DNA of 64,000 nt from assembly GCA_963806535.1 (NCBI GenBank), contig CAWDYC010000003.1, positions 64,001 through 128,000 of the forward strand, written 5' to 3'. The position numbers were made by a program, and so were the translations under genes. This DNA comes from Candidatus Bathyarchaeota archaeon (GTDB taxonomy: Archaea; Thermoproteota; Bathyarchaeia; Bathyarchaeales; Bathycorpusculaceae). Shown here piece by piece: positions 23,427 to 42,753 of this stretch (position 1 is its first letter; the number at the start of each line of letters is the position of its first letter). Under the pieces are notes generated by a model, which had not been told where the DNA came from, did no database searches, and saw nothing but the letters and a program-made list of their open reading frames with translations.

Positions 23427-23468
23427 CAGTTATGTACTTTTAAGGACTGGTATTTAAGAGGAACTAAG

Positions 23469-23519
23469 ATGAGGGATCGTCACCTCCATAGCTGGGATCG
23501 TCGGGTACTTATTCTTTGA
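23469..23519 (+). CDS. putative ilv-leu operon leader peptide MRDRHLHSWDRRVLIL
   Basis: GAGGA SD-like site at 23458-23462; four consecutive Val-Leu-Ile-Leu codons immediately before TGA; 101 nt upstream of ilvB. Confidence 0.7.
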   Translation: MRDRHLHSWDRRVLIL

Positions 23520-23620
23520 TTCACCCAGGCACCCCTCTGAAAAATCGATTATTACAAATGCAAACCAAATTTTTCGAGACGAGAGTATAGAAATTAAATT
23601 CGATAGAAGGAGACCATAAA

Positions 23621-25333
23621 ATGACTAAAATGTCTGGTGCAAAAGTACTATTAGAATCCCTTGAACAACAAAATGTAGACGTTATATTCGGCATTCTAGG
23701 AGGAGCTATCTTGCCAGTATACGATGCCTTATGCGGTAACGAGAAAATTAGACATATATTAGCTCGACACGAACAAGGAGCAGCACATGCTGCTGAAGGA
23801 TATGCGAGAGCAAGCGGACGAGTGGGCGTCTGCATGGCAACTTCGGGGCCTGGTGCAACAAACCTCGTTACTGGGATAGCAAATGCCTACATGGATTCTT
23901 CGCCAATGATAGCTATTACTGGACAGGTTCCCTCAACAGGTGTTAATTCTTCATATATGATCGGTAGAGATGCTTTCCAGGAAGCAGACATTATCGGCAT
24001 CACCACCCCAATCACTAAACACAATTATCAGCCACGAACTATAGCCGAAATCCAACCAATGGTTAACGCCGCATTCTATATCGCATCCTCAGGCAGGCCA
24101 GGACCAGTCCTAATTGACATGCCAAAAAATGTGCAGTCGGACACCGCCGAAATAGAATTAGGAATTACACAAAAGATTGAAGCGCGAGGCTACAAACCCG
24201 CATTAGATCCAGATTTGTCTAAAATTAGCGAAGCAGCCGATTTACTGGCAGAGGCTTTAGAACCAATAATACTGGCTGGCGGCGGAGTAATTTCTTCTAA
24301 TGCATCAGACGAACTAATGCAAATGTCCGATTTGTTGATGGCGCCAGTTGCAACTACTTTCATGGGCAAAGGCGCCTTTCCCGAGGGGCACCCCTTGTCG
24401 GTTGGATGCATAGGAATGCATGGAAACCCAGCTGCAAATAGGCTGATTGGTGAAGCTGACGTTCTATTAGCAATCGGGACCAGATTTTCTGATCGTGCAA
24501 CAGCCAACTTGGACACTTTCGCGCCTAACGCCAAGAAAATACACATTGACATTGATGCCGCAGAAATCGGCAAGAATATTGAAGTTGATGTTCCCATCGT
24601 TGGAGACGCAAAAGTATCATTAAAGCTATTGCATGTTGCCGTGACAAAGAAGCTACCTAAGATGAAAGTTAGTGCATGGTCAAAGCGTGTGAAAGAAGTA
24701 AAAGAGCAGCTGAGTCCATTACTAAAAGACAGACCTAAAGACCTAGTGCCAAAGGCCCTACTGATAGAGCTAAGAAAACTGCTACCAGCAGACACCATTG
24801 TTACTACAGAAGTTGGTCAAAACCAGATGTGGTCAGCCCTATACTTCCAAGCATTAAAACCCAGAACCTTCATCAGTTCAGGTGGGCTAGGAACCATGGG
24901 ATTTGGCTTCCCAGCAGCTATAGGAGCAAAAGTTGCCTGCCCAGACAGACCTGTCGTAGATATAGCTGGCGACGGCAGCTTCATAATGACTGAACAAGAA
25001 CTTGCATGTTCTGTAGCTGAAAAGATTCCGGTAATAGTCATAGTGCTGAATAATTCAGTTTTAGGCATGGTTGCTCAGTGGCAAAGAACACTTTACAATC
25101 GCCGTTACATGGCAGTAAACCTAGGCAAAACACCAAATATGGTGAAGCTTGCAGAGGCTTATGGAGCACAAGGCTTCAGAGTAAATTCAATTGAAGAATT
25201 CCAAAAAGCGGTTAAGACAGCGCTAAACAGTAACGTTACAACAGTAATCGATGTGCCTATTGGCTCAGAACAGGACGTGGTTCCATTTGTGCCTCCAGGC
25301 TGCGGGTTACCACAACAAAGAGGTGACTACTAA
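23621..25333 (+). CDS. ilvB: acetolactate synthase large subunit
   Basis: RHEQGAAHAAEGYAR, TSGPGATN, SGGLGTMGFG and GDGS TPP motif. Confidence 0.97.
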   Translation: MTKMSGAKVLLESLEQQNVDVIFGILGGAILPVYDALCGNEKIRHILARHEQGAAHAAEGYARASGRVGVCMATSGPGATNLVTGIANAYMDSSPMIAITGQVPSTGVNSSYMIGRDAFQEADIIGITTPITKHNYQPRTIAEIQPMVNAAFYIASSGRPGPVLIDMPKNVQSDTAEIELGITQKIEARGYKPALDPDLSKISEAADLLAEALEPIILAGGGVISSNASDELMQMSDLLMAPVATTFMGKGAFPEGHPLSVGCIGMHGNPAANRLIGEADVLLAIGTRFSDRATANLDTFAPNAKKIHIDIDAAEIGKNIEVDVPIVGDAKVSLKLLHVAVTKKLPKMKVSAWSKRVKEVKEQLSPLLKDRPKDLVPKALLIELRKLLPADTIVTTEVGQNQMWSALYFQALKPRTFISSGGLGTMGFGFPAAIGAKVACPDRPVVDIAGDGSFIMTEQELACSVAEKIPVIVIVLNNSVLGMVAQWQRTLYNRRYMAVNLGKTPNMVKLAEAYGAQGFRVNSIEEFQKAVKTALNSNVTTVIDVPIGSEQDVVPFVPPGCGLPQQRGDY

Positions 25334-25845
25334 TGGAAGCCGAACAAACAAAAGTGATCTCTGTGCTTGTAGAAAACAAGCCAGGTGTCCTTCACGGCGT
25401 AGCCAACTTGTTCAGACGAAGAAACTTTAACATTGAAAGCATAACGGTTGGTCCAAGCGAAAATATCGATGTAGCACGCATGACAATCACCGTAAATGGT
25501 GACGAAAAGACACTTGAACAAGTCGTTAAGCAACTGGCAAAGCTCATCGATGTCCTAAAAGTAGAGGAGTTAGAACCCGGACACTTTGTGGTGAGAGAAC
25601 TAGCTTTGATAAAAGTTAACGCGCCTACACCTAAGGAACGTTCAGACATCATAAATTGCGTAGAAGTCTTTCGAGGACGAATCATAGATGTGGCAACTGA
25701 CAGCCTAACGGTTGAAATTACAGGAACCCCTGACAAATTAGATGCATTCCTCAATCTGATGAAAACGACCGGTGTCATTGAACTCGCAAGAACAGGAATA
25801 ACAGCATTGGCAAGAGGAGCAAAAACAGTAAGAATAGACGATTAA
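25333..25845 (+). CDS. ilvH: acetolactate synthase small subunit
   Basis: VENKPGVL ACT domain, QLAKLIDV and ELARTG. Confidence 0.95.
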   Translation: MEAEQTKVISVLVENKPGVLHGVANLFRRRNFNIESITVGPSENIDVARMTITVNGDEKTLEQVVKQLAKLIDVLKVEELEPGHFVVRELALIKVNAPTPKERSDIINCVEVFRGRIIDVATDSLTVEITGTPDKLDAFLNLMKTTGVIELARTGITALARGAKTVRIDD

Positions 25846-25949
25846 ATCGTTTCTTTGAACGGAAACGCTTAACTTTCGGTTTCTCAAAAATGAGAAACTG
25901 CCTACGATGGATTCCTCAAAATGATTATTGTAAAAAGAGAGAACAAACA

Positions 25950-27218
25950 ATGAACATTACAGAAAAAATCTTGGCTAAAGCTTCAGGAAAAGATGTTGTG
26001 CACCCAGGAGAAATTGTGGATGCAAAAGTAGACATGATAATGGTGCACGATTTGACTGGGCCTTTAGCTGTTGAAGCCTTCAAAAAAATAGGCGTACAAA
26101 AAGTTTGGGATAACCAAAAAGCAGTGGTGATACTGGATCATCAGGTTCCGGCCGAATCAGTTAAGGCGGCTGAACTGCATAAGACCATGCGTCAATTCGC
26201 CAAAGACCAGAAACTGCGCTTATATGATATTGGGAGAGGCGGAATCTGTCATCAAGTTATGCCTGAAAAAGGACATGTAGTTCCAGGCACAGTAATTGTA
26301 GGTGCTGATTCGCATACCTGCACTTACGGAGCCTTCGGTGCTTTCGCCACTGGCATAGGTTCAACGGAAGCAGCAGCGGTTTTTGCTACTGGAAAAATCT
26401 GGCTGAAGGTTCCCGAAGCAATAAAAATAATCGTGACTGGGCAATTTCCAGACTTTGTTACTCCTAAAGATTTGATCTTATCAATAATTGGTCGAATTAG
26501 CGTTGAAGGGGCAATAAATGAAAGCGCTGAATTCACTGGTCCAACAATCAAGAGCATGAGCATAGCGGGAAGAATGACTATTTGTAACATGGCTGTGGAA
26601 ATGGGCGCAAAAAATGGCATCATCGAACCGGATGAAATAACCCGTAACTTCTTAGAAGGAAGAGTCAAAACATTACCCAATTTTGAATCATTGAAAAGCG
26701 ATACTGGTGCACATTACGCTCAAACAGTTGAATTTGATGTTTCAAAGATGGAGCCGCAAATAGCTTGTCCATCATCAGTCGACAATGTGAAGCCCGTTTC
26801 CAAAATTGGCAATGTTCCAATTGAGCAAGCTTTTATCGGGTCATGCACTAACGGCAGAATCGAAGATCTGCGGTTAGCTTCTCAAGTCCTAAAGGGCAAA
26901 AAAGTAAAAGACGGTGTTAGAGCTCTGGTGATTCCCGCTTCTCAAGAAGTTTACAGACAAGCATTAAATGAAGGCTTAATCGAAATCTTCAATGATGCAG
27001 GTGCAATTGTTTGTGGTTCAGCATGCGGCCCATGTTTAGGTGGTCACATCGGATTATTGGCAGCAGGCGAAACATGCGTTAGCACTTCAAACAGGAACTT
27101 TATTGGAAGAATGGGCAGTACCCAAGCCAGCGTATACCTAGCGTCCCCAGCAACAGTAGCCGCCTCAGCAATCACAGGAAAAATCACAGACCCGAGAACA
27201 CTGGAGGCAAAAGCATGA
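25950..27218 (+). CDS. leuC: 3-isopropylmalate dehydratase/homoaconitase large subunit
   Basis: DSHT, GSCTNGR, CGPCLG and STSNRNF. Confidence 0.92.
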   Translation: MNITEKILAKASGKDVVHPGEIVDAKVDMIMVHDLTGPLAVEAFKKIGVQKVWDNQKAVVILDHQVPAESVKAAELHKTMRQFAKDQKLRLYDIGRGGICHQVMPEKGHVVPGTVIVGADSHTCTYGAFGAFATGIGSTEAAAVFATGKIWLKVPEAIKIIVTGQFPDFVTPKDLILSIIGRISVEGAINESAEFTGPTIKSMSIAGRMTICNMAVEMGAKNGIIEPDEITRNFLEGRVKTLPNFESLKSDTGAHYAQTVEFDVSKMEPQIACPSSVDNVKPVSKIGNVPIEQAFIGSCTNGRIEDLRLASQVLKGKKVKDGVRALVIPASQEVYRQALNEGLIEIFNDAGAIVCGSACGPCLGGHIGLLAAGETCVSTSNRNFIGRMGSTQASVYLASPATVAASAITGKITDPRTLEAKA

Positions 27219-27718
27219 ACATGAAAATCAAAGGACCAGCCATAAAATTCGGAAACAACATTGATACAGACGTAATTCTGCCAGGAAAATACTTAGTATT
27301 GGTTGATCCTCACGAGTTAGCAAAACATGCCCTAGAAAGCTTAGACACTACTTTTCCTGAAAAAGCGAAAAACGGAGTTATCTTGGTTGGCGGCAAAAAC
27401 TTTGGATGCGGTTCAAGCCGAGAACAAGCCCCCTTAGCCCTAAAGTATTCAGGCGTGAAATGCGTCTTAGCTGACTCATTCGCTAGAATTTTCTTCAGAA
27501 ACGCAATAAACATCGGCTTACCAGTAATCGAATGCAAGGGCATATCCAACGCGGTTGAAACAGGCGACGAATTAGCTGTAGACTTTGAAGCAGGCAAGAT
27601 AGAAAACATTTCAAAAGGAAAAAAGTTTCAAGTAGACAAACTGCCCCCATTCATCATAGAAATACTGATAGATGGCGGATTAATCGAAAATTTACGTAGG
27701 AGAATAAACAAAAAATGA
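27215..27718 (+). CDS. leuD: 3-isopropylmalate dehydratase small subunit
   Basis: IDTDVI, NFGCGSSRE and FARIFFRN. Confidence 0.92.
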   Translation: MNMKIKGPAIKFGNNIDTDVILPGKYLVLVDPHELAKHALESLDTTFPEKAKNGVILVGGKNFGCGSSREQAPLALKYSGVKCVLADSFARIFFRNAINIGLPVIECKGISNAVETGDELAVDFEAGKIENISKGKKFQVDKLPPFIIEILIDGGLIENLRRRINKK

Positions 27719-28752
27719 CAGAATACAAAATATCTTTAATCCCAGGAGACGGCATCGGACCAGAATTGACCGAAGCTACTCTAAAAGTTTTAGATTCAGC
27801 ACAGAAAAAATTCGGAATAAAACTGCAAATTATTGAAGCCGAAGCAGGCGATACCACTTTAGCTAAAAGAGGAGCCGCATTACCTGAAGATACCATTCAA
27901 AAAATCAAAGAATCCCACGCCTGCCTAAAAGGACCCGTAGGCGAAACCGCAGCCGACGTCATAGTTAAACTCAGAGTGATGTTCGATTTATACGCTAATC
28001 TGCGACCATTGAAAGCCTATCCAAACGTTCCTGTTGCCAGACCAGATATTGATATGATGTTTGTTCGGGAAAACACTGAGGACGTTTACAAAGGTATAGA
28101 ATTCACGATAGGCAATGATACAACCGTGTGCATGCGTGTTATCACGAGAGGAAATTGTGAACGCATAGCCAAAAAAGCTTTCGAGATAGCCCGTTTACGC
28201 AATGGAAAAAAGAAAGTAACCGCAATACACAAAGCCAACGTTATGCGTGTAACCGACGGGTTATTCGCAAGTGTCTGCCGAGAAACCGCAAAACGATACC
28301 CAGACATCGCTTTTAACGAGTTATACGTAGATGCAGCATCTATGCGTTTGATAAAGGAACCACAGGTTTTTGATGTTTTTTGCACTTGCAACATGTTTGG
28401 CGACATTCTATCTGACGAAGCAGCGCAACAAATCGGCGGACTAGGCATGGCTCCAGGCGCTAACATAGGCGACAACTTTGCGCTCTTCGAACCTATCCAT
28501 GGTTCAGCACCAAACAGAGCGGGAAAACATACAGCAAATCCAATTTCCATGATCTTGTCCGCAAAGATGATGCTGGAGTGGCTGGGAGAAAAATACAAAG
28601 ATAACAAATGCTTACAAGCAGGCGCAGCTATAGAAAATGGAGTGGTTTATGCTCTGCGTAATCGTCAATCTGTTCCGGACTGCGGCGGCAAGACCACGAC
28701 AGTGGGAATGGCAGAAGCCATTGCTGCAGCCCTAACTGTGAAAACTGGTTGA
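27715..28752 (+). CDS. leuB: 3-isopropylmalate dehydrogenase (isocitrate/isopropylmalate family)
   Basis: PGDGIGPE, RENTE, NMFGDILSD and EPIHGSAP. Confidence 0.9.
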   Translation: MTEYKISLIPGDGIGPELTEATLKVLDSAQKKFGIKLQIIEAEAGDTTLAKRGAALPEDTIQKIKESHACLKGPVGETAADVIVKLRVMFDLYANLRPLKAYPNVPVARPDIDMMFVRENTEDVYKGIEFTIGNDTTVCMRVITRGNCERIAKKAFEIARLRNGKKKVTAIHKANVMRVTDGLFASVCRETAKRYPDIAFNELYVDAASMRLIKEPQVFDVFCTCNMFGDILSDEAAQQIGGLGMAPGANIGDNFALFEPIHGSAPNRAGKHTANPISMILSAKMMLEWLGEKYKDNKCLQAGAAIENGVVYALRNRQSVPDCGGKTTTVGMAEAIAAALTVKTG

Positions 28753-28756
28753 AAAA

Positions 28757-30280
28757 ATGATTAATAAAACCTCAAAACGTATCCGAATTTTTGACACGAC
28801 CTTAAGAGATGGGGAACAAACCCCAGGAGTTTCTTTAACCGCCGACGATAAGATGGAGATTGCGCGCCAGCTGAGCAAGTTAGGCGTTGACACGATTGAG
28901 GCTGGTTTTCCCAGTTCTTCTGAGGGAGAAAAAAAAGTAGTTAAGGACATAGCTAAAGCAGGGTTAAACTCTGAGATCTGCGCTCTGTCAAGAGCTACAA
29001 AAGGCGACATTGACGCAGCAATCGAATGCGATGTTGATTTAATCCATGTTTTCGTCCCAACTTCTCCTGTACAAATGAAATATGCAGTAAACTTAACACC
29101 TGAACAAGTACTAACTGCAACAGTAGAATCCATTGAGCACGTGAAAAAACATGGGATAAAATGTGAATTTTCCCCTATGGATGCCACACGCTCAGAAATG
29201 CCCTTCCTAAAAAAAGTATGCCAAGCCGCAGAAAAAGCAGGCATGGACAGCCTAAACGTCCCAGACACGGTAGGCATAATGATTCCCAAAACAACCATCA
29301 AACTAATTGAGGAACTAAGAACCGTAGTTAAAGTACCCATAAGCGCCCATTGCCACGACGACTTCGGCTTAGCAGTTGCAAACTCGTTAGCTGCCGTTGA
29401 AGCAGGCGCTACTCAAGTACACGTTGCCGTTAACGGCTTAGGTGAACGAGCTGGAAACGCATCGCTGGAAGAAGTAGTTATGGCGTTGCATGAGATTTAC
29501 AAGTACAAAACAGGCGTCAACACAAGGTTACTTTACAGCACTTCAAGAATGGTTGCAACATTAACAGGTATTGGCGTTCAGGCAAACAAGGCAATTGTTG
29601 GCGAAAACGCTTTCGCTCATGAATCAGGAATCCATACTCGCGGAGTAACGGAGAAACCGTTGACTTTTGAACCGATAAAACCTGAGCTGGTTGGCCGAAC
29701 AAGAAAACTTGTGGCGGGAAAACTGGCAGGAACAAGCGGCATCAAAGCGGAACTGGAAGAGGTAGATATTCACCCCACAGAGGAGCAACTCAAAGAAATC
29801 GTGCAACGCGTCAAAGAACTAGGCGATAAGGGCAAGATGGTGACAGATGCTGATTTGCTGGCGTTAACTTCTGCAGTTATGGGCCAAGTTTATGGCGAAG
29901 AAAAAATCGTTGACTTATCCGACATAGCTGTTATGACAGGAATCAAAGTTATCCCAACTGCTTCCGTCAGATTAACTTTGGATGGAAAAGAATACATTGC
30001 AGCTGAAACAGGCGTCGGCCCAGTTGATGCAGTCTTAAAAGCCATACAGAAACTAACCAACAACTTAGAAAACATACGACTCAGCGAATATCGTTTGGAA
30101 GCCATCACAGGCGGCTCAAACGCAGTTGCTGAAGTCATCATAAAAGTAGCGGACGAAAAAGGCAACATTGTTTCCGCACGAGCAGCCAGAGAAGATATAG
30201 TTATGGCAAGCGTTGAAGCAATGATAAACGGTATAAACAAGCTTTTGATAAAGAATCGTAAGCAGGGAAACCAAAAGTGA
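28757..30280 (+). CDS. leuA: 2-isopropylmalate synthase (LeuA; CimA paralogue not excluded)
   Basis: DTTLRDGEQ, HCHDD, GERAGN and HESGIH, with a C-terminal regulatory domain (GVGPVDA). Confidence 0.8.
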   Translation: MINKTSKRIRIFDTTLRDGEQTPGVSLTADDKMEIARQLSKLGVDTIEAGFPSSSEGEKKVVKDIAKAGLNSEICALSRATKGDIDAAIECDVDLIHVFVPTSPVQMKYAVNLTPEQVLTATVESIEHVKKHGIKCEFSPMDATRSEMPFLKKVCQAAEKAGMDSLNVPDTVGIMIPKTTIKLIEELRTVVKVPISAHCHDDFGLAVANSLAAVEAGATQVHVAVNGLGERAGNASLEEVVMALHEIYKYKTGVNTRLLYSTSRMVATLTGIGVQANKAIVGENAFAHESGIHTRGVTEKPLTFEPIKPELVGRTRKLVAGKLAGTSGIKAELEEVDIHPTEEQLKEIVQRVKELGDKGKMVTDADLLALTSAVMGQVYGEEKIVDLSDIAVMTGIKVIPTASVRLTLDGKEYIAAETGVGPVDAVLKAIQKLTNNLENIRLSEYRLEAITGGSNAVAEVIIKVADEKGNIVSARAAREDIVMASVEAMINGINKLLIKNRKQGNQK

Positions 30281-31092
30281 AATCCGTAGCTTTCCAAGGC
30301 GAACCAGGCGCTTATAGCGAAGGAGCAGCTTTCCAATTTTTCGGGGCAAAAACCAAAGTTAAGCCCTGCAAAGACTTCAAGGATGTTTTTGACAGCGTTT
30401 GCATGCGAAAAACCCAGTTCGGCATTGTTCCTATTGAGAACAGCTTAGAAGGCAGCGTGCCTCAGAATTATGACCTTTTTCTACGTTATGATTTAAAAGT
30501 TTGCGCTGAAGTAATTTTTAAAATTGAACATTGCCTCATAGCAAACCCAGGCACATCTCTTGACGACATTGAAGTGGTCTATTCACATCCACAAGCTTTA
30601 GGGCAATGTCGAAGTTTCCTTGAGGAGTTTGGACGCGAACTCATACCCACCTATGATACAGCTGGCAGCGTTAAATTGATTAAGGAAAAAAACCTCAAAA
30701 ACGCAGCCGCAATTGCCAGCGAAAGAGCAGCAGACATTTATGACATGCACATCCTCGCCAAAGATATCGCGGACAACCTTGAAAACTACACCCGCTTCTT
30801 TATACTGTATACGGAAGACGCAGCACCTACAGATAAAGACAAAACGAGCATAATCTTCTCGGCCAAACATGAGCCAGGCACACTCTACCATGCACTAGGA
30901 GAATTTGCAAAACGAGATATCAACCTAACAAAAATCGAATCCAGACCCACAAAGAAAACGGCGTGGGAATACAATTTTTACCTAGACTTTGAGGGACACC
31001 GAATTGAAACAAAATGTGCAGAAGCATTGAAAGCATTAGAACAATACGCTATATTCACAAAAATACTTGGATCCTATAGGAAAGCAAGTTAA
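30277..31092 (+). CDS. pheA: prephenate dehydratase
   Basis: QGEPGAYSE, PIENS, SHPQALGQC, NYTRF and ESRP ACT domain; GTG start overlaps the leuA stop. Confidence 0.95.
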   Translation: MKSVAFQGEPGAYSEGAAFQFFGAKTKVKPCKDFKDVFDSVCMRKTQFGIVPIENSLEGSVPQNYDLFLRYDLKVCAEVIFKIEHCLIANPGTSLDDIEVVYSHPQALGQCRSFLEEFGRELIPTYDTAGSVKLIKEKNLKNAAAIASERAADIYDMHILAKDIADNLENYTRFFILYTEDAAPTDKDKTSIIFSAKHEPGTLYHALGEFAKRDINLTKIESRPTKKTAWEYNFYLDFEGHRIETKCAEALKALEQYAIFTKILGSYRKAS

Positions 31093-31160
31093 TTATTATC
31101 AGCATCCACATGTTTTAACTCTGACAAAACTTAAGTTCAGAAGTACCTTATTTCTTTAAA

Positions 31161-32408: not shown

Positions 32409-32418
32409 GAAACTCAAA

Positions 32419-34370: not shown

Positions 34371-34398
34371 AGAGGATTACTTCCGCTGAAAGTTCTTT

Positions 34399-34659
34399 TT
34401 ACTCCTGAATAGCACTGCACATATTAACTATTTCGTGGTAAACTGCTTCAACTTGCAAGGGATCAAGGCGAAATTCGACCGCTTTTTCCTTCACTCGTTT
34501 AAAGACCTCATTTTCTCTGGTAACATCCCTTATGGGGAAGCTTTTCTTTTTCTTAATCAAACCAATCGCCGAGCATGTTTTTGCTCTTTCGCATAGGGCA
34601 GCTATGATTTGTTCGTCAATTTCGTCAACTCTTTTTCTTAATTGTTGAATTTCATCCAT
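34399..34659 (-). CDS. aroQ: chorismate mutase (AroQ)
   Basis: LRKRVDEIDEQI..ER..K..RDVTRE. Confidence 0.9.
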   Translation of the reverse strand: MDEIQQLRKRVDEIDEQIIAALCERAKTCSAIGLIKKKKSFPIRDVTRENEVFKRVKEKAVEFRLDPLQVEAVYHEIVNMCSAIQE

Positions 34660-35768
34660 TATTTCTGTCTCTCCAGAATTCTCGGTATGAAGCCTGCTCG
34701 AATCATATGGTCAGCCAAAGTTACCGCGACCGCAGCTTCCACAGCTGGCACAGCTTTTGGAACTACACATGGGTCATGCCTGCCTTTGACGCTCAGATTA
34801 GCATTTTTCATTGTTGATAGGTTAACGCTTTTCTGCTCTTTGCCAAGTGAAGGGGTCGGTTTAATTGCTATACGTATCAAAATAGGCATACCATTTGATA
34901 TCCCGCCTAAGATTCCACCCATGTTTTCCGTTGAAGTAGCAACTTTTCCGCTTTGCAAGATGTATGCATCGTTACTCTCAGAGCCCTTTAATTCGGCAAT
35001 CTCAAAACCTAACCCGAATTCAACTGCTTTTACCGCGGGAACGTTAAACAATGCTTTCGCCAAATCAGCGTCAAGCGAATCAAACAGTGGTTCACCAACA
35101 CCTACGGGAACATTTAGCGCCATGCATTCAACCACTCCGCCTACACTTTCGCCCTCTTTTCTAGCCTCCACTATGGCTTGCTCCATTTTTTCTGAGCAGG
35201 TTAAGTTGGGACACCGTGTAGATGTTGAGTATCTATTCTTACGGATTTCTTCTGCACTAAACTTTTTGTCAGATGTTACGTTACCAACCGCTGTGGTGTA
35301 AGCTAACACGTCAACTTCAAATCGACTAAGAAGTTTTTTGGCGATAGATCCAGCCATGATAAGTGCTACTGTTACTCTGCCCGAGAAACGTCCGCCTCCT
35401 CTATAATCCTGGAAGCCACCATATTTTATCCGGGCTGTGTAATCAGCGTGTCCCGGTCTTGGCAAATCCTTAATTGCCTCGTAATCGCTGGAGTCAACCT
35501 CCCGATTCTCAACCGTCACAGTAATTGGGGCGCCAGTTGTAAAACCGTTAAAAACTCCTGAAAGAACTTTGGCAGTATCTTTCTCGATTCTTGGTGAAAC
35601 AATTCTCGGCTCAGAGGGAATACGTCTATCTAAGTCCATTTGAATGTCAGCTTCAGAAAGAGGTAATCCCGCCGGGCAGCCATCGACAACTACACCAACG
35701 ATTTTGCCGTGGCTTTCGCCGAAAGTGGTTACTGTGAATTCTTTACCTATCGAATTTCCCGCCAACAA
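34659..35768 (-). CDS. aroC: chorismate synthase
   Basis: GESHG, PRPGHAD, GGGRFSGRVT and GRHDPC. Confidence 0.97.
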   Translation of the reverse strand: MLAGNSIGKEFTVTTFGESHGKIVGVVVDGCPAGLPLSEADIQMDLDRRIPSEPRIVSPRIEKDTAKVLSGVFNGFTTGAPITVTVENREVDSSDYEAIKDLPRPGHADYTARIKYGGFQDYRGGGRFSGRVTVALIMAGSIAKKLLSRFEVDVLAYTTAVGNVTSDKKFSAEEIRKNRYSTSTRCPNLTCSEKMEQAIVEARKEGESVGGVVECMALNVPVGVGEPLFDSLDADLAKALFNVPAVKAVEFGLGFEIAELKGSESNDAYILQSGKVATSTENMGGILGGISNGMPILIRIAIKPTPSLGKEQKSVNLSTMKNANLSVKGRHDPCVVPKAVPAVEAAVAVTLADHMIRAGFIPRILERQK

Positions 35769-37047
35769 TTTCAGCTCCTATTTGTTTTAGATGAGTGAAG
35801 AACAGCGGATAAGACTTTCTAACGCATTGTGCGTTTTGAATTGTTGTTTGGTTTTTTGCACCTAAAGCTGCAACTGCACAAGCCATTGCTATACGGTGGT
35901 CATTGTGCGGATTAATCACCGCACCATGTAGATTACATGGACCTTCAATGGTTAAAGTGTCAGAGTCTACATTTATTTTTGCACCCATCTTTTTGAATTC
36001 AAGATAAAGTGTTTTTAGTCTGTCCGACTCTTTGAGTTTGAGCCGTCGGGCGCCCGTGATTTTGGAAGTTCCTTTTGCATAGCATGCAAGCGCTGTACAG
36101 ACTGGAACGAGGTCAGGAATATTTTTTGCATCAACATTGACGGGCTCAAGCGAATTGCCTGTTCCAGTTATTTCAACGCTGTTCTCGCATACTTTTCCAT
36201 TAATACCCATTTGCTTAAGGATACCCAGAATCGCTTTATCGCCTTGGGGGCTGCAGTATTCAAGATTTTTAATTTGAACGGTTGAATTGGTTATGGCTGT
36301 GGCAGCCAGGAGAAAGGCTGCAGAAGAAAAATCACCGGGCACATTAAAGTCATAGGGCTTATATGTTTGGTTAGCTGGAATGTGTATAAGTTTATAGTTG
36401 TCGTAAACTTCTATTCTGATTTCATGTTTGGCAAGCACGTCCCACGTCATTTTGACGTAGTCTGCAGATTCAAGGGGCGATTTTAATGTGATTTCTGTGT
36501 CTACTTTCGCTATTGGACAAGCAAACATTAATCCTGAAATAAACTGTGAACTAACATCTCCGGGAATAGAGGTTTCGCCTCCAAGGATACCGCCGCCCTC
36601 AACAAATACAGCATTTTTATTGCCGAGTTTTTTAATGCGAACGCTAACACCGAGATCATTGAGACTTCTAATTAAAGGTTCAATGGGTCTGCGTTCAAGT
36701 GAACTGCCAAAAACCAAAGTTGAAGGGTCAGGCGCTAGGGCAGCTACTGGTATCATGAAACGCAAGGTAGCACCTGATTCACCGCAGTCGATAGGTTCTT
36801 TGGCATTCGTGACTGGGTTTGCACCTGTAACCGTCCAGCATTCTTCAGCTATTACTACATTTGCGCCTAAAGCTGTAATGGCCCTCAGGGTTGCTTGGGT
36901 GTCATCGGATAGAAGAGGGTTTGAGATCTTAGAAATTCCATTGGATAGAGCAGCAGCTATGAGCATTCTCTGGGTATAAGATTTTGATGGAGGGGCACAA
37001 ACTTCGCCGCTTAACTTTTCAGTTTTCTTGATGATTACATCAGTCAT
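35743..37047 (-). CDS. aroA: 3-phosphoshikimate 1-carboxyvinyltransferase (EPSP synthase)
   Basis: PPSKS, GESGATLRF, SSQF, KESDR and DHRIAMA. Confidence 0.97.
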   Translation of the reverse strand: MTDVIIKKTEKLSGEVCAPPSKSYTQRMLIAAALSNGISKISNPLLSDDTQATLRAITALGANVVIAEECWTVTGANPVTNAKEPIDCGESGATLRFMIPVAALAPDPSTLVFGSSLERRPIEPLIRSLNDLGVSVRIKKLGNKNAVFVEGGGILGGETSIPGDVSSQFISGLMFACPIAKVDTEITLKSPLESADYVKMTWDVLAKHEIRIEVYDNYKLIHIPANQTYKPYDFNVPGDFSSAAFLLAATAITNSTVQIKNLEYCSPQGDKAILGILKQMGINGKVCENSVEITGTGNSLEPVNVDAKNIPDLVPVCTALACYAKGTSKITGARRLKLKESDRLKTLYLEFKKMGAKINVDSDTLTIEGPCNLHGAVINPHNDHRIAMACAVAALGAKNQTTIQNAQCVRKSYPLFFTHLKQIGAEIVGGKFDR

Positions 37048-37049
37048 TA

Positions 37050-37922
37050 TCAGAGCACCTTGGCTTTCTCACTGTTCAAATGGGTTTTCAAGATTTCGCC
37101 GCCGTATTTTCGCAACGCCGCTATAACTAAATCAACCTTGTCATTAGGAGTTACCGCTGTTACTGCTGGTCCTTTGCCGCATAATCCAGCTGCTATTGCT
37201 CCAGCAGCCAAAGCATCTACAGCTATAGTAGGATTATATCCCGAAGCTGAGGAATAAATCAAACCGTTAAGCGTCAATGCCCCCCAAACATTGCCCTTCA
37301 AAGCCTCATTGTAAGCGACTTCAACGAGCGGTTTAATTGTTTGCAGCCGCTTGACATTGGAATCTGCTGTGTAAGATTTTTCGGACGGTACGTGGAACAA
37401 AACTATTAAATCTTCATCAAATGGTAACTTCTTAACTATTTTTCGATTCAAATTGTCAGTAATTATTGTTCCACCGAAATATGAAGCACAAGCGTCATCA
37501 AAAGCTCCTGTCACAGTCACTTTTGAGTCAAAAGCAGCATCAATGCCCAAATTTACGACATCAAAATCAGGAAGCGTTTTGCCTAATGCCGCAATCGATG
37601 CGAGAGCTACTGCGTTTGCCGCTACACTACTGCTTTTGAGCCCTTTGGCAATTGGAATGTTCGACCAAGTTTTTATTTTTGCGCCAAAACTTTTTTCTAA
37701 ACTGAACTTTTGAAGGACTCTGCACACCGTTTTTTCTATCAGAACAGTGCTTTCTTTTGGGTCCGAAGTTATTTCCGCTTTGAAAACATATGGTTCATAC
37801 GTTAATTCGACTTCAGCCTTAGTCCATAAATCAACACCAAAAGCTGCACCTTTACCAAGCGCAATTGCATTGACAATTGTTGCAGCGCCATGAGCTATTG
37901 CAGTAACTTTACCAGTCAACAT
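37050..37922 (-). CDS. aroK: archaeal (GHMP) shikimate kinase
   Basis: ATIVNAI, GLKSSS and TGAFDDACAS. Confidence 0.95.
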   Translation of the reverse strand: MLTGKVTAIAHGAATIVNAIALGKGAAFGVDLWTKAEVELTYEPYVFKAEITSDPKESTVLIEKTVCRVLQKFSLEKSFGAKIKTWSNIPIAKGLKSSSVAANAVALASIAALGKTLPDFDVVNLGIDAAFDSKVTVTGAFDDACASYFGGTIITDNLNRKIVKKLPFDEDLIVLFHVPSEKSYTADSNVKRLQTIKPLVEVAYNEALKGNVWGALTLNGLIYSSASGYNPTIAVDALAAGAIAAGLCGKGPAVTAVTPNDKVDLVIAALRKYGGEILKTHLNSEKAKVL

Positions 37923-38780
37923 TTACACCTTTAACAAGTGATTAAGCGCCGCCTTCCTCATAACTTCAACTGGCGCCTTGCAAGCAGTCCAGATTTCGAA
38001 TGATGCAGCCCCTTGATAAATTAGCATTTCAACCCCACTCACCACTTTAGCGCCTGCCGCTTTAGCATCCTTGACCAACTTGGTTTCAATTGGATTGTAA
38101 ACTATGTCCATTACAGCCAAATCAGGTTTCAACCATTCTAGTGATATGGGGGTTTGGTCCGCGTTCGGTTCCATTCCTATCGAAGTAGCATTAATGAGTA
38201 CATCTGCTCCGGCAAGATTGACTTTGATCGTTTTTGGGGTAAGTGCACCCGCGCTGATTTTTTTGTTAAATTTTAGTTTTAGGAGATTTGTAAGCTCTGT
38301 CACTGGTTTAAGTGTTCGATTCAAAATTACCAGTTCATCGGCTTCTTGCGATAAAGTGTATGCTATGGCTTTTGCAGCGCCACCTGCACCGAGCAACAAT
38401 ATTTTTTTGCCCTTCACCGCAACGCCATTCTGCTCAAGCGCATTTAATGCCCCGACACCATCAGTGTTAAAACCGAAAAGTCTCCCATCTGTGTTTAAAA
38501 TGGTATTAGCAGAAGCTATGGTTTTAGCAGTTGGGTCCAATTCATCCAAGTATTTGATGACCTCGTTTTTATGTGGCATCGTTACGTTTAACCCTCGAAT
38601 GCCTAAAGCTCGCATAGCGCTTATCGCATTTTTAACCTCAGTGGCTTTTACTTTGAACGCTAAGAAAACGTAATCAATTTGTAATGCACGAAACGCTGCA
38701 TTATGAATAATTGGGCTAAGAGTGTGTTCTATAGGGTCACCGATTACACCACACACTTTTGTTTTGCCCGAAATAACCAT
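37923..38780 (-). CDS. aroE: shikimate dehydrogenase
   Basis: HTLSP, NVTMPHK, NTDG, GAGGAA and MLIYQG. Confidence 0.96.
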   Translation of the reverse strand: MVISGKTKVCGVIGDPIEHTLSPIIHNAAFRALQIDYVFLAFKVKATEVKNAISAMRALGIRGLNVTMPHKNEVIKYLDELDPTAKTIASANTILNTDGRLFGFNTDGVGALNALEQNGVAVKGKKILLLGAGGAAKAIAYTLSQEADELVILNRTLKPVTELTNLLKLKFNKKISAGALTPKTIKVNLAGADVLINATSIGMEPNADQTPISLEWLKPDLAVMDIVYNPIETKLVKDAKAAGAKVVSGVEMLIYQGAASFEIWTACKAPVEVMRKAALNHLLKV

Positions 38781-38782
38781 TT

Positions 38783-39466
38783 TTATTTTGCTCCTAAGAG
38801 GTCGTATGCAACTCTCATATCTCGGATGCTTATTTGTCCCGACGCGGTTTCGTTGCTTTGATCTAGTGAAGCAAAAGTAAAGAAGGCGCCAAACATAGGC
38901 GAGAGAAGTCTAGAAACCTTACCGTCTTTGCCCATGCAGAAACAGACAATTTTCACCCTGCGGGGTATTGCGGAAATGAAGTTTAGCACCGTCAAGTTGT
39001 CTTCAATTTTTTCAGCTGTTGTTGCTATCTTGCAGATAGCAGCTCCGCTGGAAATTTCCTGTTTTAGAATGTTGCCCATTTCAGAACTGCTTAATGTGCC
39101 ATCAAACTTGTGGAAGGAAACGATTGGTTTAGCGCCCAGTTGCTTGAGTTTGTTAATTGTTTCTTTATATTTTGGACTTGACATATCGACGTCAATATAT
39201 TCGAAGCCGTTTTTGACTGCGTTTAGCAGCGTTTGTTGACGCTCGGTTTCTGTTCCGGAGAAACTGCCTTTTTCGCTTTGTAGCTTGTTTGTGGCAATGA
39301 GTGGGATTCTTGTGGTTTTTGAGATTTCGGATAGGTTTCTGGAGGTTTCAAGGCAGTCTAGCCTTACCTCAATGAAGTCAGCTTTGGCTTTCTCCGCCCG
39401 CTCAATTAGATTTACAGCTTCGTCATTACTTTTTGGGAGAATCGAGACACAGATTCTCGGGATCAC
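38783..39466 (-). CDS. aroD: type I 3-dehydroquinate dehydratase
   Basis: EVRLD, SFH, KIA, CMG..GKVSR and ASGQI. Confidence 0.92.
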   Translation of the reverse strand: MIPRICVSILPKSNDEAVNLIERAEKAKADFIEVRLDCLETSRNLSEISKTTRIPLIATNKLQSEKGSFSGTETERQQTLLNAVKNGFEYIDVDMSSPKYKETINKLKQLGAKPIVSFHKFDGTLSSSEMGNILKQEISSGAAICKIATTAEKIEDNLTVLNFISAIPRRVKIVCFCMGKDGKVSRLLSPMFGAFFTFASLDQSNETASGQISIRDMRVAYDLLGAK

Positions 39467-40506
39467 TTTTCTATCACCGTTTCTTCAGGCACTGATACGC
39501 CGAAGTGTCGGCCTCCTTTTGCAGATAAGTGCACGAGAACTTCATCGTTTGGTTTTAGCTCTGTAACAGGTTTTGAAGCTTGCGGAGTAACTAATCTTAT
39601 GGTTTCGGCGTTTTGAAGTATGGTTTTTATTTTTGTACCTTCGGCTTCGGCTTCAATGAGGATTAGGGGGCGGAACTCTATTTTGGATCTGCCAACATTT
39701 GTTATTCTGACTTTTCCTTCTCTGTTGATAATTAAAACTTCGTCACCCGCTTTTAATTCTGAAAGGTAACGGGTGCTTTGCAGCGATGTTAATGTGTAGT
39801 GTGAGGCAGGTCCAGCGTTTACTCGGAAAGGTCTGGATTGCACATAAGGGTTTTCGTTTACTTCAGCTTCGACAAGGAAGAAGCCAGCAGATTGACAGCC
39901 GACAAGCATTCCTTCTCCAGGAACCATCAAATCAACAGTATCAACGCAGACTCTAGCACCTGTTCCGATCGGTTTTATGGATAAAATTTTGCCCGTAATC
40001 AGAGGCACCTTCGGCATCTGCCCCTTAACAACTTTAACGGTTTTGGCAAGCTCATCTGGATTTGAAGTTTTAAGCAAAACGCCGTCTGTTCCCAATTCCA
40101 AGGCTTCAAGAACTACCTTAGCATCCTCAGCCGTTGTTACTTCGGCAACCAGTTTGCTCTTGCCGCCGTGAGCTTTAGCAATTAAGTTTTCGAGCGGAAT
40201 TACTCGCCAATCGAGACAGTTAATAATTATATAGTCAATCCCAAGCTCGGCAGCCTTAGCTGCATTATTCTCGTCTTCTTTGCCGTTTATGTTGATTCTT
40301 ATGGCGGTTTTTTTGCCCTCATTTTTTAGTTGGACAATTTTTTTCTCATTTATGCCGTGAAGAAATGTTACGTTTAATTTGCCAGAGCGGTTACTTGCTT
40401 GTTCACCTTCAAGAACTACGTCAGCATTTTCATGGGCAAGACTAAGCAAACTTTCATGTTCTTGCGGTGAAGCCGCTTCGTCTATTTGTACCCAGAGTTC
40501 CTTCAA
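39463..40506 (-). CDS. aroB': 3-dehydroquinate synthase II (archaeal AroB')
   Basis: WRVIPLENLIA, RVCVDT, RPFRVNAG, QNAET and GRHFG. Confidence 0.95.
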   Translation of the reverse strand: MKELWVQIDEAASPQEHESLLSLAHENADVVLEGEQASNRSGKLNVTFLHGINEKKIVQLKNEGKKTAIRININGKEDENNAAKAAELGIDYIIINCLDWRVIPLENLIAKAHGGKSKLVAEVTTAEDAKVVLEALELGTDGVLLKTSNPDELAKTVKVVKGQMPKVPLITGKILSIKPIGTGARVCVDTVDLMVPGEGMLVGCQSAGFFLVEAEVNENPYVQSRPFRVNAGPASHYTLTSLQSTRYLSELKAGDEVLIINREGKVRITNVGRSKIEFRPLILIEAEAEGTKIKTILQNAETIRLVTPQASKPVTELKPNDEVLVHLSAKGGRHFGVSVPEETVIEK

Positions 40507-41294
40507 GCTTTTTCACCGAGAATTTTAAGCGCTTGTTCCACGCTAACTCCATCATGAACGATCGCTGACAGCGCTTTAACTATCAATGTTGGATTGTCAT
40601 GTTGAAACACATTTCTTCCAATTGAGAGCCCCGAAGCACCTGCATCAATTGCGTCATGTGTGGTCTGGAGAACTTCTTGAGATGTTTTACATTTTGGCCC
40701 TCCAGCAATAACTACTGGAACAGGACAGCTTTCAATAACTGTTTTAAACGTATTAACGTTACCAGTGAAGTTTGCCTTAATAATGTCTGCACCTAGTTCT
40801 GCGCCGATTCGGGCCGCGTGGGCAACCACATCAGCGGCATGTTCATTTTGAATTTTGGGTCCACGCGGATACATCATCGCGAGCAGCGGCACACCAAATA
40901 AGTCACATTCTTCAGCTACTTTGCCAAGAGTGCTCAACATTTTGTCCTCATCCTGCGCTCCAACGTTAACGTGTACAGAAACTGCATCTGCACCTAGACG
41001 TATGGCTTCTTGAACACTGCATACTTGGACTTTGCCATTTATGTTTGGGCTAAGATTTGACATACCTGACAACATTACTATTAATCCGGCGTTTCCCACG
41101 TTAACATGTTTAGCGATACCTTTGTGAATTAGCACAGCGTCAGCCCCGCCTTTGAGTAGATGGTTGATTATTTGCTGCATGTTAGCTAATCCTTGAATTG
41201 GACCAACTGTTACACCATGATCCATAGGTATGATTACCGTGCGGTTGTCCGATTGCAAAATTCTCTTTAATCGTCTCGTTTTTCCCTGATTCAT
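40503..41294 (-). CDS. aroA': 2-amino-3,7-dideoxy-D-threo-hept-6-ulosonate synthase (AroA', class IA aldolase family)
   Basis: PMDHG, LAMMYPRG, ELGADIIK, AGG and GRNVFQ; adjacent to DHQS II. Confidence 0.92.
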   Translation of the reverse strand: MNQGKTRRLKRILQSDNRTVIIPMDHGVTVGPIQGLANMQQIINHLLKGGADAVLIHKGIAKHVNVGNAGLIVMLSGMSNLSPNINGKVQVCSVQEAIRLGADAVSVHVNVGAQDEDKMLSTLGKVAEECDLFGVPLLAMMYPRGPKIQNEHAADVVAHAARIGAELGADIIKANFTGNVNTFKTVIESCPVPVVIAGGPKCKTSQEVLQTTHDAIDAGASGLSIGRNVFQHDNPTLIVKALSAIVHDGVSVEQALKILGEKA

Positions 41295-41309
41295 TTAATT
41301 CACCTTTGC

Positions 41310-42557
41310 TTATTTGGCGCTCCTTAATGAGTTTTTTATTAACTTCAAAGCCTTTTCCCGTTCATTCCAATCTACAAACAGCAAAATGCTGGATGTGATG
41401 GTTAATATGCCTGAAATATTTATGCCGCTGATTCTTAGGTCTTCGCTGATTTTTCCAATAATGCCATGGGTTGCTTCCAAGCCGACACCACTTGTTTTTA
41501 TGAAGACCAAGTCTTTTTTGACTGCCATAGCAATTGTTTCGTTATTGCTCTTTGTTATGTCATGAATGTTGTTGAAGAACATATCTAAGTTTTTCTCTTG
41601 AGAAACATAAAGGATAATTGAATTTGTAGACATAGACATGCCAAGCAAGAGTGAATGTTGCTTAGTTTCTTCAACCATTTCCTGAACGATTTGCGGATTG
41701 GCTGAGATTCCGTTTCCTATTACTGTTATTTCAGCGACTGGAAAAGAATTAGCAATTTCTGCATCTAATTCTGTTGCTAATGCGCCTGTAATTATTGTAC
41801 CCTCTTCGGTAAGATTGCCGTGTGCATGGTTGATTACTCGGATGTTGATGTTTTTGGGTTTGTACTTCAAGGCTTTGCTATGGATAAATTTAGCGCCTGA
41901 ATCAGCGAGGCCCACTAAGGTGTTAACGTCAATTTCTTTGAGGCGTTCGGGGTTGGAGACGATTTTTGGGTCACCTGACATTATGCCGTCTGCATCCGTT
42001 ACTAACACGATTTCGTCAGCGCCCAATGCTTCAGCTAGAACAAACGCCGTTGTATCGCTTCCGCCTCTTCCAAGCGTGGTAATTTTGCCATCTTTAGTTT
42101 TACCAAGAAAGCCAGCAACCACAGGTATAACACTCCTCTGCATTACCGGCAATACACATTCACGAATGTTCTTTTCACAATCTTTCAAGATTGGATTCGC
42201 ATTTTGGAATGCTGAATCAGTTATTATTGGCCAGTTGCTATCGATTGGATCAAAATAGCAAGATTCTGCCCCATTAGTCTTTAAAGCTGTTGAGAATATC
42301 CGAATGCTGGTTCGTTCACCCATTGATAAGATATCATCTAAATCTTTTTTCTCCAATTTACCTTTTGAAGCGTTTTTAGCAGTGGTCATGAGAACATCGG
42401 TTGTTTTGCCCATCGCTGAAACAACAACGGCAACACGTGTGCCTTTTTTGGCTTCATTCATAACGGCATCTACCGCTTTTAAGAGTCTATCGTGATCGGC
42501 TAAGCTAGAACCACCAAATTTAACAATAATTGTTTTACAAATGCCAGTCCTTTTCAT
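41310..42557 (-). CDS. lysC: aspartate kinase (first gene of the aromatic operon)
   Basis: KFGGSS, VVSAMG, TLGRGGSD and DPKIV, with ACT domains. Confidence 0.92.
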   Translation of the reverse strand: MKRTGICKTIIVKFGGSSLADHDRLLKAVDAVMNEAKKGTRVAVVVSAMGKTTDVLMTTAKNASKGKLEKKDLDDILSMGERTSIRIFSTALKTNGAESCYFDPIDSNWPIITDSAFQNANPILKDCEKNIRECVLPVMQRSVIPVVAGFLGKTKDGKITTLGRGGSDTTAFVLAEALGADEIVLVTDADGIMSGDPKIVSNPERLKEIDVNTLVGLADSGAKFIHSKALKYKPKNINIRVINHAHGNLTEEGTIITGALATELDAEIANSFPVAEITVIGNGISANPQIVQEMVEETKQHSLLLGMSMSTNSIILYVSQEKNLDMFFNNIHDITKSNNETIAMAVKKDLVFIKTSGVGLEATHGIIGKISEDLRISGINISGILTITSSILLFVDWNEREKALKLIKNSLRSAK

Positions 42558-42576
42558 ATTGATACACCCATGCTTT

Positions 42577-42614
42577 GCCCAGAACTTTTCTTAAAGAACT
42601 TTTCAGTTCTGGGC
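42577..42614 (-). promoter_or_regulatory. alternative RNA hairpins directly after the leader stop codon (putative attenuator switch)
   Basis: Perfect 10-bp inverted repeat GCCCAGAACT (42577-86) / AGTTCTGGGC (42605-14), with internal direct repeat AGAACTTTTC (42581-90 and 42595-604). Confidence 0.7.
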
Positions 42615-42698
42615 TTAAGAAAAATAACGATAAAAGTAGTAGTCGAAGCTAAGTAATTGTGCTGCGTTGCTTTCTTTGTTTAGTATGAAATTGGACAT
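42615..42698 (-). CDS. putative aromatic operon leader peptide MSNFILNKESNAAQLLSFDYYFYRYFS
   Basis: 27-aa ORF between the promoter and lysC; 7 of the last 10 codons are Phe/Tyr; stop is 57 nt upstream of lysC. Confidence 0.8.
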   Translation of the reverse strand: MSNFILNKESNAAQLLSFDYYFYRYFS

Positions 42699-42736
42699 TG
42701 GAGCTTCGAATCCTTGCTGATTGAGACGTTATCCAG

Positions 42737-42753
42737 AAAATATAAGCATTTCG
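42737..42753 (-). promoter_or_regulatory. putative BRE/TATA promoter of the aromatic operon
   Basis: Minus strand CGAAATGCTTATATTTT, about 40 bp upstream of the leader ATG. Confidence 0.6.

Follow-up and report, generated by a model that had tools for sequence, protein, structure and literature searches.

Ribosome-mediated attenuation is usually treated as a bacterial mode of control. In the enterobacterial attenuators (pheL-pheA, pheM-pheST, leuL, hisL, ivbL/ilvL), a short translated leader open reading frame (ORF) carries codons for the cognate amino acid next to an RNA structure, and in the cat-86 and ermC translational attenuation leaders an antibiotic makes the ribosome stall near the beginning of a short leader ORF. 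The T-box riboswitches of Firmicutes, which are about 200 nt long, control biosynthesis genes together with the cognate aminoacyl-tRNA synthetase, and a single codon sets their specificity. To our knowledge, the adjustment of amino-acid biosynthesis to supply has been described in archaea for only a few transcription factors. Here we describe two leaders in a 64,000-nucleotide stretch of the genome of a Candidatus Bathyarchaeota archaeon (assembly GCA_963806535.1, 2.95 Mb; the stretch, C3:64001-128000, is called the window below). Each contains a short upstream open reading frame (uORF): uORF1 lies ahead of an ilvB-ilvN-leuC-leuD-leuB-leuA-pheA operon and uORF2 ahead of an operon for aromatic amino-acid synthesis (aro). 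Comparison with related genomes makes it rather likely that both leaders are translated mini-genes reporting the supply of charged tRNA, that is, ribosome-mediated attenuation in two designs.

The aro leader shares with the enterobacterial attenuators the classic layout, in which cognate codons form a run after a variable N-terminus. The ilv-leu leader, and the related leaders found ahead of hisG, leuC and leuS, differ from them in that one cognate codon stands at a fixed position instead of a run, and no Rfam leader model matches. The host here is archaeal, and neither a terminator made of a GC stem plus a U-tract nor an antiterminator pair was found in its genus. One-codon specificity and a regulon of biosynthesis genes plus a synthetase (leuC, ilvB-leu, leuS) are common to the short leaders and the T-boxes, but the codon here is in frame with a Shine-Dalgarno (SD) element, a start and a stop, the element takes up about 40 nt, and it has no Stem I or T-box sequence. 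With cat-86 and ermC the short leaders share a very short ORF and, presumably, a stall at about codon 6 that decides the RNA fold; the presumed signal is a shortage of charged tRNA, not an antibiotic. For the aro leader, the likeness to these two systems is seen in distant families, where base pairing is possible between the hairpin's 3' arm (CUCC) and the SD element of the first gene; this likeness is not evident in the genus.

A full-text literature search, whose coverage excluded subscription journals and supplements, found no paper on an archaeal leader peptide that senses amino acids. A regulatory role of archaeal uORFs is stated in general terms in the excerpt of PMC10219788, and the excerpt of PMC12548453 gives FttA as the likely cause of polarity in archaea. 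According to PMC10272879, the leader of ilvBNC in Corynebacterium holds a regulatory uORF in a conserved region upstream of ilvB that was first thought to be a structured RNA; like the ilv leader described here it is a conserved region upstream of ilvB, but its host is bacterial.

Results

A first-pass annotation of the window had proposed that two short uORFs, with cognate codons packed against the stop codon, represent one regulatory design used throughout the lineage. Both uORFs are indeed present and conserved, each preceded by a conserved TATA-like box and an SD-like element and followed by a spacer. The packing of cognate codons against the stop applies to the aro leader (41/41 loci) but neither to the ilv leader (8/23) nor to the his leader, which has one conserved codon at position 6. 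The tie to the cognate amino acid stands for both leaders and for a third one in the genome, ahead of hisG, although no single rule is shared. A lineage-wide uORF-based system appears well supported by the comparison and extends to hisG, leuC and leuS, as two classes rather than one common design. Across the genomes compared, these uORFs prove to be conserved with coding signatures, their codon matches the downstream gene, and the associated helices are conserved.

The aro leader

The features of the aro leader are the following.

42737..42745 (-): TATA-like box TTATATTTT, presumably the aro leader promoter; CCGAAACGCTTATATTTT is conserved in the loci of the genus
42703..42710 (-): TTCGAAGC, directly before the start of uORF2; complementary to GCTTCGA (42649-42643), from reading the sequence
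42615..42698 (-): uORF2, 27 codons, MSNFILNKESNAAQLLSFDYYFYRYFS-stop; conserved in 41/41 loci
42618..42650 (-): Phe/Tyr control region S F D Y Y F Y R Y F S; F or Y in 7 of the last 12 codons
42577..42614 (-): hairpin GCCCAGAACT...AGTTCTGGGC with a T-rich loop, directly after the TAA stop of uORF2; from folding
42565..42569 (-): GGGTG, SD-like element of the first aro gene; (A/C)GGGTG is kept 7-10 nt before the start
32419..42557 (-): aro operon; Pfam and NCBIfam

The first aro gene, which encodes an aspartate kinase-like protein, starts at 42557 and is separated by the spacer from the stop of uORF2. DNA upstream of the orthologous kinase gene was collected from 40 relatives and a public genome collection, and some of these loci may belong to the same species. 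Wherever the kinase gene comes first among the aro genes (41/41 loci), a uORF of about 24-29 codons precedes it; the N-terminal half of this uORF varies freely, and its tail is rich in Phe/Tyr, with 5-9 F/Y in the last 12 codons (for example SFDYYFYYYHFP, SFEYGFYYFGYFT, FYSFSYFFYN, PFFGSFGYFGYRG and FEFYFSGYWYMFNY). Over the 41 loci, F+Y account for 302/492 residues (61%) in the last 12 positions versus 49/709 (7%) in the N-terminal part. In the genome, at least 7 F+Y in the last 12 residues are found in 11/30,553 small ORFs of at least 20 amino acids (aa). The Phe/Tyr tail is far beyond chance. Moreover, the enrichment persists where the nucleotide sequence of the leader has diverged, and no Phe/Tyr-tailed uORF was found upstream of the paralogous kinase next to dapB (3 loci). 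At the RNA level, the codon run is rich in U/C and poor in G. The 8-10 nt that immediately precede the uORF2 start (GGUUCGAAGC) pair with the Ser-Phe-Asp codons that open the F/Y run, and coordinated variants were seen by eye: loci with GGTCGAAGC have ..TCGACT, and those with GGTTCGAAGC and GAATA pair further.

The hairpin lies 0-5 nt past the uORF stop in 41/41 aro loci, with minimum free energies of -12 to -40 kcal/mol. Its outer 6 bp, GCCCAG/CUGGGC, are kept in 37/37 aligned loci; among 10 sequence-cells that differ from the commonest pair, 9 single changes are G-U/U-G compatible and 1 is changed on both sides, and 1 further cell is broken. The most distant loci (L056, L057, L112, L113) have, in the same place, a hairpin whose sequence is unrelated, and this argues for an RNA structure rather than a DNA operator. 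The 3' arm (CUCC) of L056 and L113 can pair with the SD element of the first gene, and constrained folding, with gene starts that are approximate, gives a modest drop in the probability that this element is unpaired (0.67 to 0.45 in L056, 0.54 to 0.36 in L113). Runs of T>=5 are present in 24/41 aro spacers versus 17.5% of control upstream windows, mostly in the hairpin loop, and in some aro outgroups the hairpin is followed by U4-5. A motif shared by a regulon was rejected, since the aro hairpin and the ilv blocks are each single-copy in the genome.

The ilv-leu leader

The features of the ilv-leu leader are the following.

23415..23423 (+): TATA-like box TTTTTATTT, presumably the ilv-leu leader promoter; block CCGTAAACTTTTTATTTG is conserved in the loci of the genus
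23456..23461 (+): AAGAGG, SD-like element of uORF1; 8-9 nt before the start in aligned loci, pairs with downstream CCUCU (RNAalifold)
23469..23519 (+): uORF1, 16 codons, MRDRHLHSWDRRVLIL-stop; conserved
23472..23486 (+): Leu unit AGG GAT CGT CAC CTC, nearly invariant in nucleotides; also precedes leuC and leuS in family f7
23493..23507 (+): Val unit TGG GAT CGT CGG GTA, with Val codon 13 at 23505-23507; GTA is kept in 23/23 loci of the genus
23524..23528 (+): CCCAG, partner of CUGGG (23491-23495); helix 61-65:93-97 of alignment A1
23533..23538 (+): CCCTCT, anti-SD-like, complementary to the uORF1 SD element and to GAGGG
23570..23574 (+): T5 run in the spacer, tentatively an archaeal U-tract terminator
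23578..23582 (+): GACGA, partner of UCGUC in the Leu unit; helix 46-50:152-156 of A1
23621..31092 (+): ilvB-ilvN-leuC-leuD-leuB-leuA-pheA operon; Pfam

Between uORF1 and the ilvB start at 23621 lies the spacer. In the 23 loci of the genus the first 40 nt of the uORF1 frame (ATGAGGGATCGTCACCTCAATAGCTGGGATCGTCGGGTAC) are almost invariant and the last three codons are variable. The tails read VLIL in 7 loci, VQLF in 4, VQLL, VFIL and VHFY in 2 each, VLVL in 1, and VQIS, VQIL, VLFC, VLFL and VPRN at one locus each; four branched-chain codons stand at the stop in 8/23 loci, and 3/23 have no branched-chain codon in the last three positions. Because these codons vary, the VLIL tail is a trait of this genome and its nearest kin and not an element of the leader. 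The stop is fixed at codon 17 in 23/23 genus loci (TGA 8, TAA 15). For the uORF of ilvB leaders the start is ATG in 24/29 and GTG in 5/29, with an SD-like AGAGG or GGAGG 8-9 nt upstream, and the outgroup uORF has an extra 18 nt, in frame. Judged by this pattern of conservation, uORF1 is very probably translated.

In the Leu unit, an SD-like GAGGGATC is followed by two codons and then by Leu codon 6 (23484-23486). In families f5, f11 and f12 the Val unit precedes the Leu unit, with Val at codon 6. The 3' end of the 16S rRNA of the organism is complementary to AGGAGGUGAUCC; therefore GAGGGAUC, which spans uORF codons 2-4, matches a Shine-Dalgarno sequence inside the frame almost perfectly, with a single U missing. 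At this spacing a ribosome bound to it would have codon 5 in its P site and codon 6 in its A site.

According to RNAalifold on the ilv alignment, the SD element of the uORF (AGAGG) pairs with a downstream CCUCU, and GAGG pairs with the CCUC of the Leu codon. Three further helices of alignment A1, GAGGG:CCCUC, CUGGG:CCCAG and UCGUC:GACGA, have 93.6% of cells paired, versus 40-57% with the partners slid. Changes on both sides were found in UCGUC:GACGA (C-G to U-A in 4 sequences) and in CUGGG:CCCAG (G-C to A-U in 3). In family f7, the anti-SD CAGCCUCU matches the SD region AGAGGUUG, and reading the sequences by eye, L344 and L345 differ on both sides and still pair.

Related leaders ahead of hisG, leuC and leuS

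In the same genome, hisG (G000:C3:158581) is preceded by a uORF starting ATGATGAGGGATTGCGTTCAT, that is (M)MRDCVH, with His at codon 6. The his and ilv leaders of this genome share an (A/G)TG-AGG-GAT start; RTGAGGGAT has 13 copies in the genome, and only those at ilvB and hisG sit in leaders of amino-acid operons. On five outgroup genomes, RTGAGGGRT gave hundreds of matches and was uninformative. The peptide MRD(C/R)(V/I)H is conserved in 28/30 hisG loci (25/25 in the genus and 3/5 in the outgroup, where the leaders read VRDRVH, VRGRVH and VRGQIH), with synonymous changes TGC/TGT, CGA/CGG and TTG/CTA/TTA. Its nucleotide pattern was found in 45/401 genomes of the class, all in the same order (f1 38/103, f11 4/25, f5 2/2), and the reversed control gave 0. 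A conserved 8-bp hairpin, GGAAGACA...UGUCUUCC, was also observed in his leaders L068-L091, about 25-50 nt before the uORF start and near the predicted 5' end; in many members of the genus its loop holds a third GCGUUCA-like copy.

The Leu form of the pattern matched in 85/401 genomes versus 17 reversed-control matches, with a concentration in the order (f7 16/18, f10 3/3, f5 2/2, f11 8/25, f1 32/103). In the sister family f7, a uORF (M/L)RDRFLx(R/G)-stop is present in 12 loci; in 11/12, those in which the downstream gene is readable, it lies about 165 nt before leuC (large subunit of 3-isopropylmalate dehydratase/homoaconitase). It starts with ATG in 7 and TTG in 5, and codon 8 varies among CGC, CGG and CGA (Arg). 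Two further genomes have MRDRFLRRS-stop and LRDRFLSRN-stop 67-70 nt before leucine-tRNA ligase, and in one f10 genome the uORF is MRDRFL-stop only. Uncovered in families f1, f4, f5, f10, f11 and f12 was an MRDRFL-type uORF before ilvB operons. The three units can be written as follows.

Leu unit: GAU CGU CAC/UUC CUC
Val unit: GAU CGU/AGC CGG GUA
His unit: GAU UGC/CGA GUU CAY

In every Leu, Val or His unit exactly two codons stand between GAU (or AAU) and the cognate codon. Leaders of ilvB in f1, f5, f11 and f12 have Leu and Val units in either order, and leaders of leuC and leuS have the Leu unit only; the Val unit was found only with ilvB operons.

Search for other leaders in the genome

The first-pass annotation had predicted His-, Trp- and Thr-rich uORFs ahead of the corresponding genes, and this did not hold: hisG has a single in-frame His codon, and no cognate-rich uORF was found upstream of trpE or thrC/hom in this genome. 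The same is true of ilvC, ilvD, argG and metY, for which cognate-rich leaders had also been expected. The only small ORF upstream of trpE is MYVFVLISLK-stop, and upstream of argG and metY there are promoter-sized conserved blocks only. The block at argG (G000:C10, 65177-66422, minus strand) is 98 nt long, is conserved with the congeneric genome G014, lies about 14-112 nt upstream between divergent genes and contains the palindrome TGTATCAAATGGTACA; it resembles an operator for a transcription factor more than a leader. No cognate leader was found at the aminoacyl-tRNA synthetase genes located here (TyrRS/TrpRS, PheRS-alpha and HisRS, from family-model matches, and leuS). A small ORF with a Phe/Tyr-rich N-terminal end, MVFANYFYYFSSSDRNKTNAKS, lies 125 to 56 nt upstream of the histidyl-tRNA synthetase gene (G000:C8, start 116064); as the region is T-rich, it is probably due to chance.

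A scan of 4,907 intergenic small ORFs for enrichment in single residues was too noisy, placing the aro leader no higher than 26th and bringing out no His, Trp or Thr leader. The genome was also compared with G014 over 2.4 Mb (1,298 reciprocal best hits, median 70% protein identity; a rough comparison based on simple ORF calls), in which the conserved ATG/GVG-initiated leader uORF pairs were those of ilv and aro only. The other conserved pairs were discarded: they trace to coding genes that had not been predicted, read in another frame, to rRNA or tRNA, or to blocks of promoter size. A Trp-rich candidate before C4:502193 was discarded as another frame of the end of an ABC ATPase gene. The hisG leader is missing from this comparison because hisG is frameshifted in the assembly. 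Indeed, hisG (G000:C3:158581-160860) continues into hisD in a single frame of 759 aa whose middle part is garbled, and trpE (G000:C4:352230-353685) is split over two frames; both breaks are probably assembly frameshift errors. Rfam models (cmscan, with the gathering threshold for the window and E<=10 for both leaders) gave no match to a T-box or to a Leu, His, Phe, Thr or Trp leader, the sole match at E<=10 in the leaders being a microRNA model (E=5.2).

Operons and surrounding genes

Gene identities in both operons were taken from Pfam and NCBIfam profile matches. The ilv-leu operon (+) and the aro operon (-) are convergent. The aro operon starts with the aspartate kinase-like gene, followed by genes for ADH synthase (DeoC family) and dehydroquinate synthase II, aroD, aroE, a shikimate kinase of the GHMP type, aroA, aroC, chorismate mutase, an aminotransferase and tyrA (prephenate dehydrogenase); it encodes the shikimate pathway in its archaeal form together with the branch leading to Phe/Tyr. 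This content agrees with the first-pass annotation, with two additions, namely pheA at the end of the ilv-leu operon and the chorismate mutase gene:

34399-34659 (-): chorismate mutase, 86 aa, absent from the ORF list supplied with the window; Pfam/NCBIfam

Since this gene fills the gap between aroC and the aminotransferase gene, no second leader is present there.

The absence of a transcription-factor gene beside the leaders, also noted in the first pass, was borne out: no transcription-factor domain is recognisable in the genes flanking both leaders, except for the helix-turn-helix of an integrase of the insertion sequence (IS) type (rve core plus helix-turn-helix; 42826-43683, +). The integrase gene lies about 80 nt upstream of the aro TATA-like box, where relatives have unrelated sequence. 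Just upstream of the ilv promoter, on the opposite strand (23045-23230, -), there is a 61-aa ORF starting MCEFNVILNG, which we take to resemble the small CooT-like proteins. Between the convergent operons, a 415-aa ORF (31161-32408, +) without a Pfam match has an R-x4-H motif (RNHLVH), which presumably recalls HEPN nucleases.

Discussion

Attenuation by the ribosome would work differently in the two leaders. In the aro design, a ribosome that reaches the stop codon of the uORF would melt the 5' arm of the hairpin. Starvation for Phe-tRNA or Tyr-tRNA would stall it 5-10 codons earlier, with the U/C-rich codon run covered and the hairpin left folded, and whether the hairpin is folded or melted would set the expression of the aro operon. 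In the design of the ilv-leu, his, leuC and leuS leaders, a very short uORF starting (A/G/U)UG-AGG-GAU contains the SD-like GAGGGAUC, and the codon to be sensed, Leu CUC, Val GUA or His CAY, comes two codons later. We infer that the internal SD sequence parks the ribosome so that the A site holds this codon. Under shortage of the cognate tRNA, the ribosome stalled there would block the pairing of the uORF initiation region with the downstream anti-SD CCUCU; the closed fold of the leader would lower downstream expression, and the stalled ribosome would prevent it. The stall itself, the direction of control and the step at which it is exerted, which may be termination at a U-tract, possibly with FttA, or initiation of translation, are parts of this proposal that go beyond the conserved features.

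Several observations weigh against ribosome-mediated attenuation as set out above. All locus counts come from kin that are not independent, so that they overstate the support, and the covariation support of the ilv helices is modest, as it amounts to about two evolutionary events only. In the genus, the aro leader shows no terminator/antiterminator pair and no competing 2:3 pairing, and AAAGCA.. instead of U's follows the hairpin. A model in which the aro SD element is sequestered was rejected for the genus, since constrained folding of 41 spacers gave no consistent switch; the probability that this element is unpaired is about 0.5 in both modelled ribosome states. Runs of T>=4 are present in 24/29 (83%) of ilv spacers and 79% of his spacers, compared with 65% of control upstream windows; this enrichment is modest, and the U-tract was rejected as a strong signal for ilv and his. 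A single sensed codon is an unusually small sensor. Moreover, conservation over the first ~13 codons of the ilv and his uORFs extends to third positions, also when families are compared in which synonymous sites should be saturated, and therefore a constraint at the RNA or DNA level is acting. Finally, his leaders carry a second copy of the unit with CAU exactly 16 nt after the first in 28/28 loci, an offset that is out of frame and makes this copy unreadable as His by the ribosome.

The last two observations make a tRNA- or protein-sensing RNA a live rival for the short class: the frame would be incidental, and the units in the ilv, his and leu leaders would present the cognate codon to an uncharged or charged tRNA, as a T-box does, or to an RNA-binding protein. 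The regulon of biosynthesis genes and a tRNA synthetase fits T-box logic, and UUCAY is complementary to 5 nt (GUGGA) in the anticodon loop of tRNA-His. Such pairing beyond the codon was rejected as a general property of the units, being seen for His and not for Leu or Val. In addition, starts that vary only among AUG, GUG and UUG, SD elements at the correct spacing, conserved stops and the synonymous changes in the his peptide speak for a translated frame, and the leaders have no match to a T-box or any other Rfam family and no identified element that pairs with an NCCA end. We regard an RNA sensor as unlikely. Termination that depends on a factor has a somewhat better, though still small, chance of being correct. 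By analogy with Rho-dependent attenuation, FttA/aCPSF1 would load on naked leader RNA, and the stalled ribosome and the hairpin would block its loading. Once the ribosome terminates, the U/C-rich, G-poor Phe/Tyr codon run would be exposed, the hairpin fills most of the remaining aro spacer, and the excess of T>=5 runs in these spacers points the same way, as does the attribution of archaeal polarity to FttA in the excerpt of PMC12548453. Against this, the RNA ahead of a stalled ribosome is naked as well, and the hairpin arm that can pair with the SD element of the first gene in distant families points to translational control. The genome encodes an FttA/aCPSF1 orthologue above the curated cut-off, which is uninformative because the gene is, as far as we know, universal in archaea.

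The remaining two explanations have little to recommend them. Constitutive damping or coupling of downstream translation by uORFs that are translated without sensing any amino acid is in line with what the excerpt of PMC12548453 describes as common effects of uORFs, but would leave unexplained the Phe/Tyr run before the aromatic operon in all 41 loci, the Leu codon before leuC, leuS and ilvB-leu, the His codon before hisG and the restriction of the Val unit to ilvB operons; it is highly improbable. Least probable of all is that the blocks are DNA operators for a transcription factor with the uORFs as by-products. The direct repeats (GGGATCGTC twice, GATTGCGTTCAT twice) and the perfect inverted repeat GCCCAGAAC/GTTCTGGGC have shapes typical of operators, and the block sequences are invariant within the genus. 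Nevertheless, the blocks are located within transcribed leaders, well past the TATA boxes, the changes in the arms of the aro hairpin are G-U compatible only on the transcribed strand, long-range compensatory pairs exist, the F/Y enrichment survives nucleotide divergence, and the motifs are single-copy in the genome.

A broader form of ribosome-mediated attenuation, which we put forward tentatively and hold to be somewhat less than an even prospect, is that this order of Bathyarchaeia has a programmable one-codon gauge. Changing codon 6 among Leu, Val and His would retarget the leader to another operon or tRNA synthetase, with the internal GAGGGAUC holding the ribosome, and a classical leader with a Phe/Tyr run would operate alongside it on the shikimate operon. 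If this is true, the ribosome does in Bathyarchaeia what T-box RNAs do in Firmicutes.

The conserved uORFs of 6-27 codons described here are missed by gene callers, which matters for annotation. To conclude, our analysis provides candidates for control of this kind, defined in sequence and open to testing, in an uncultured class of archaea that is abundant worldwide: a Phe/Tyr leader on an archaeal-type shikimate operon, and a compact one-codon leader for Leu, Val and His genes and for leucyl-tRNA synthetase. These leaders may also offer a natural assay for the coupling of transcription to translation and for termination, through U-tracts and FttA, in archaea.

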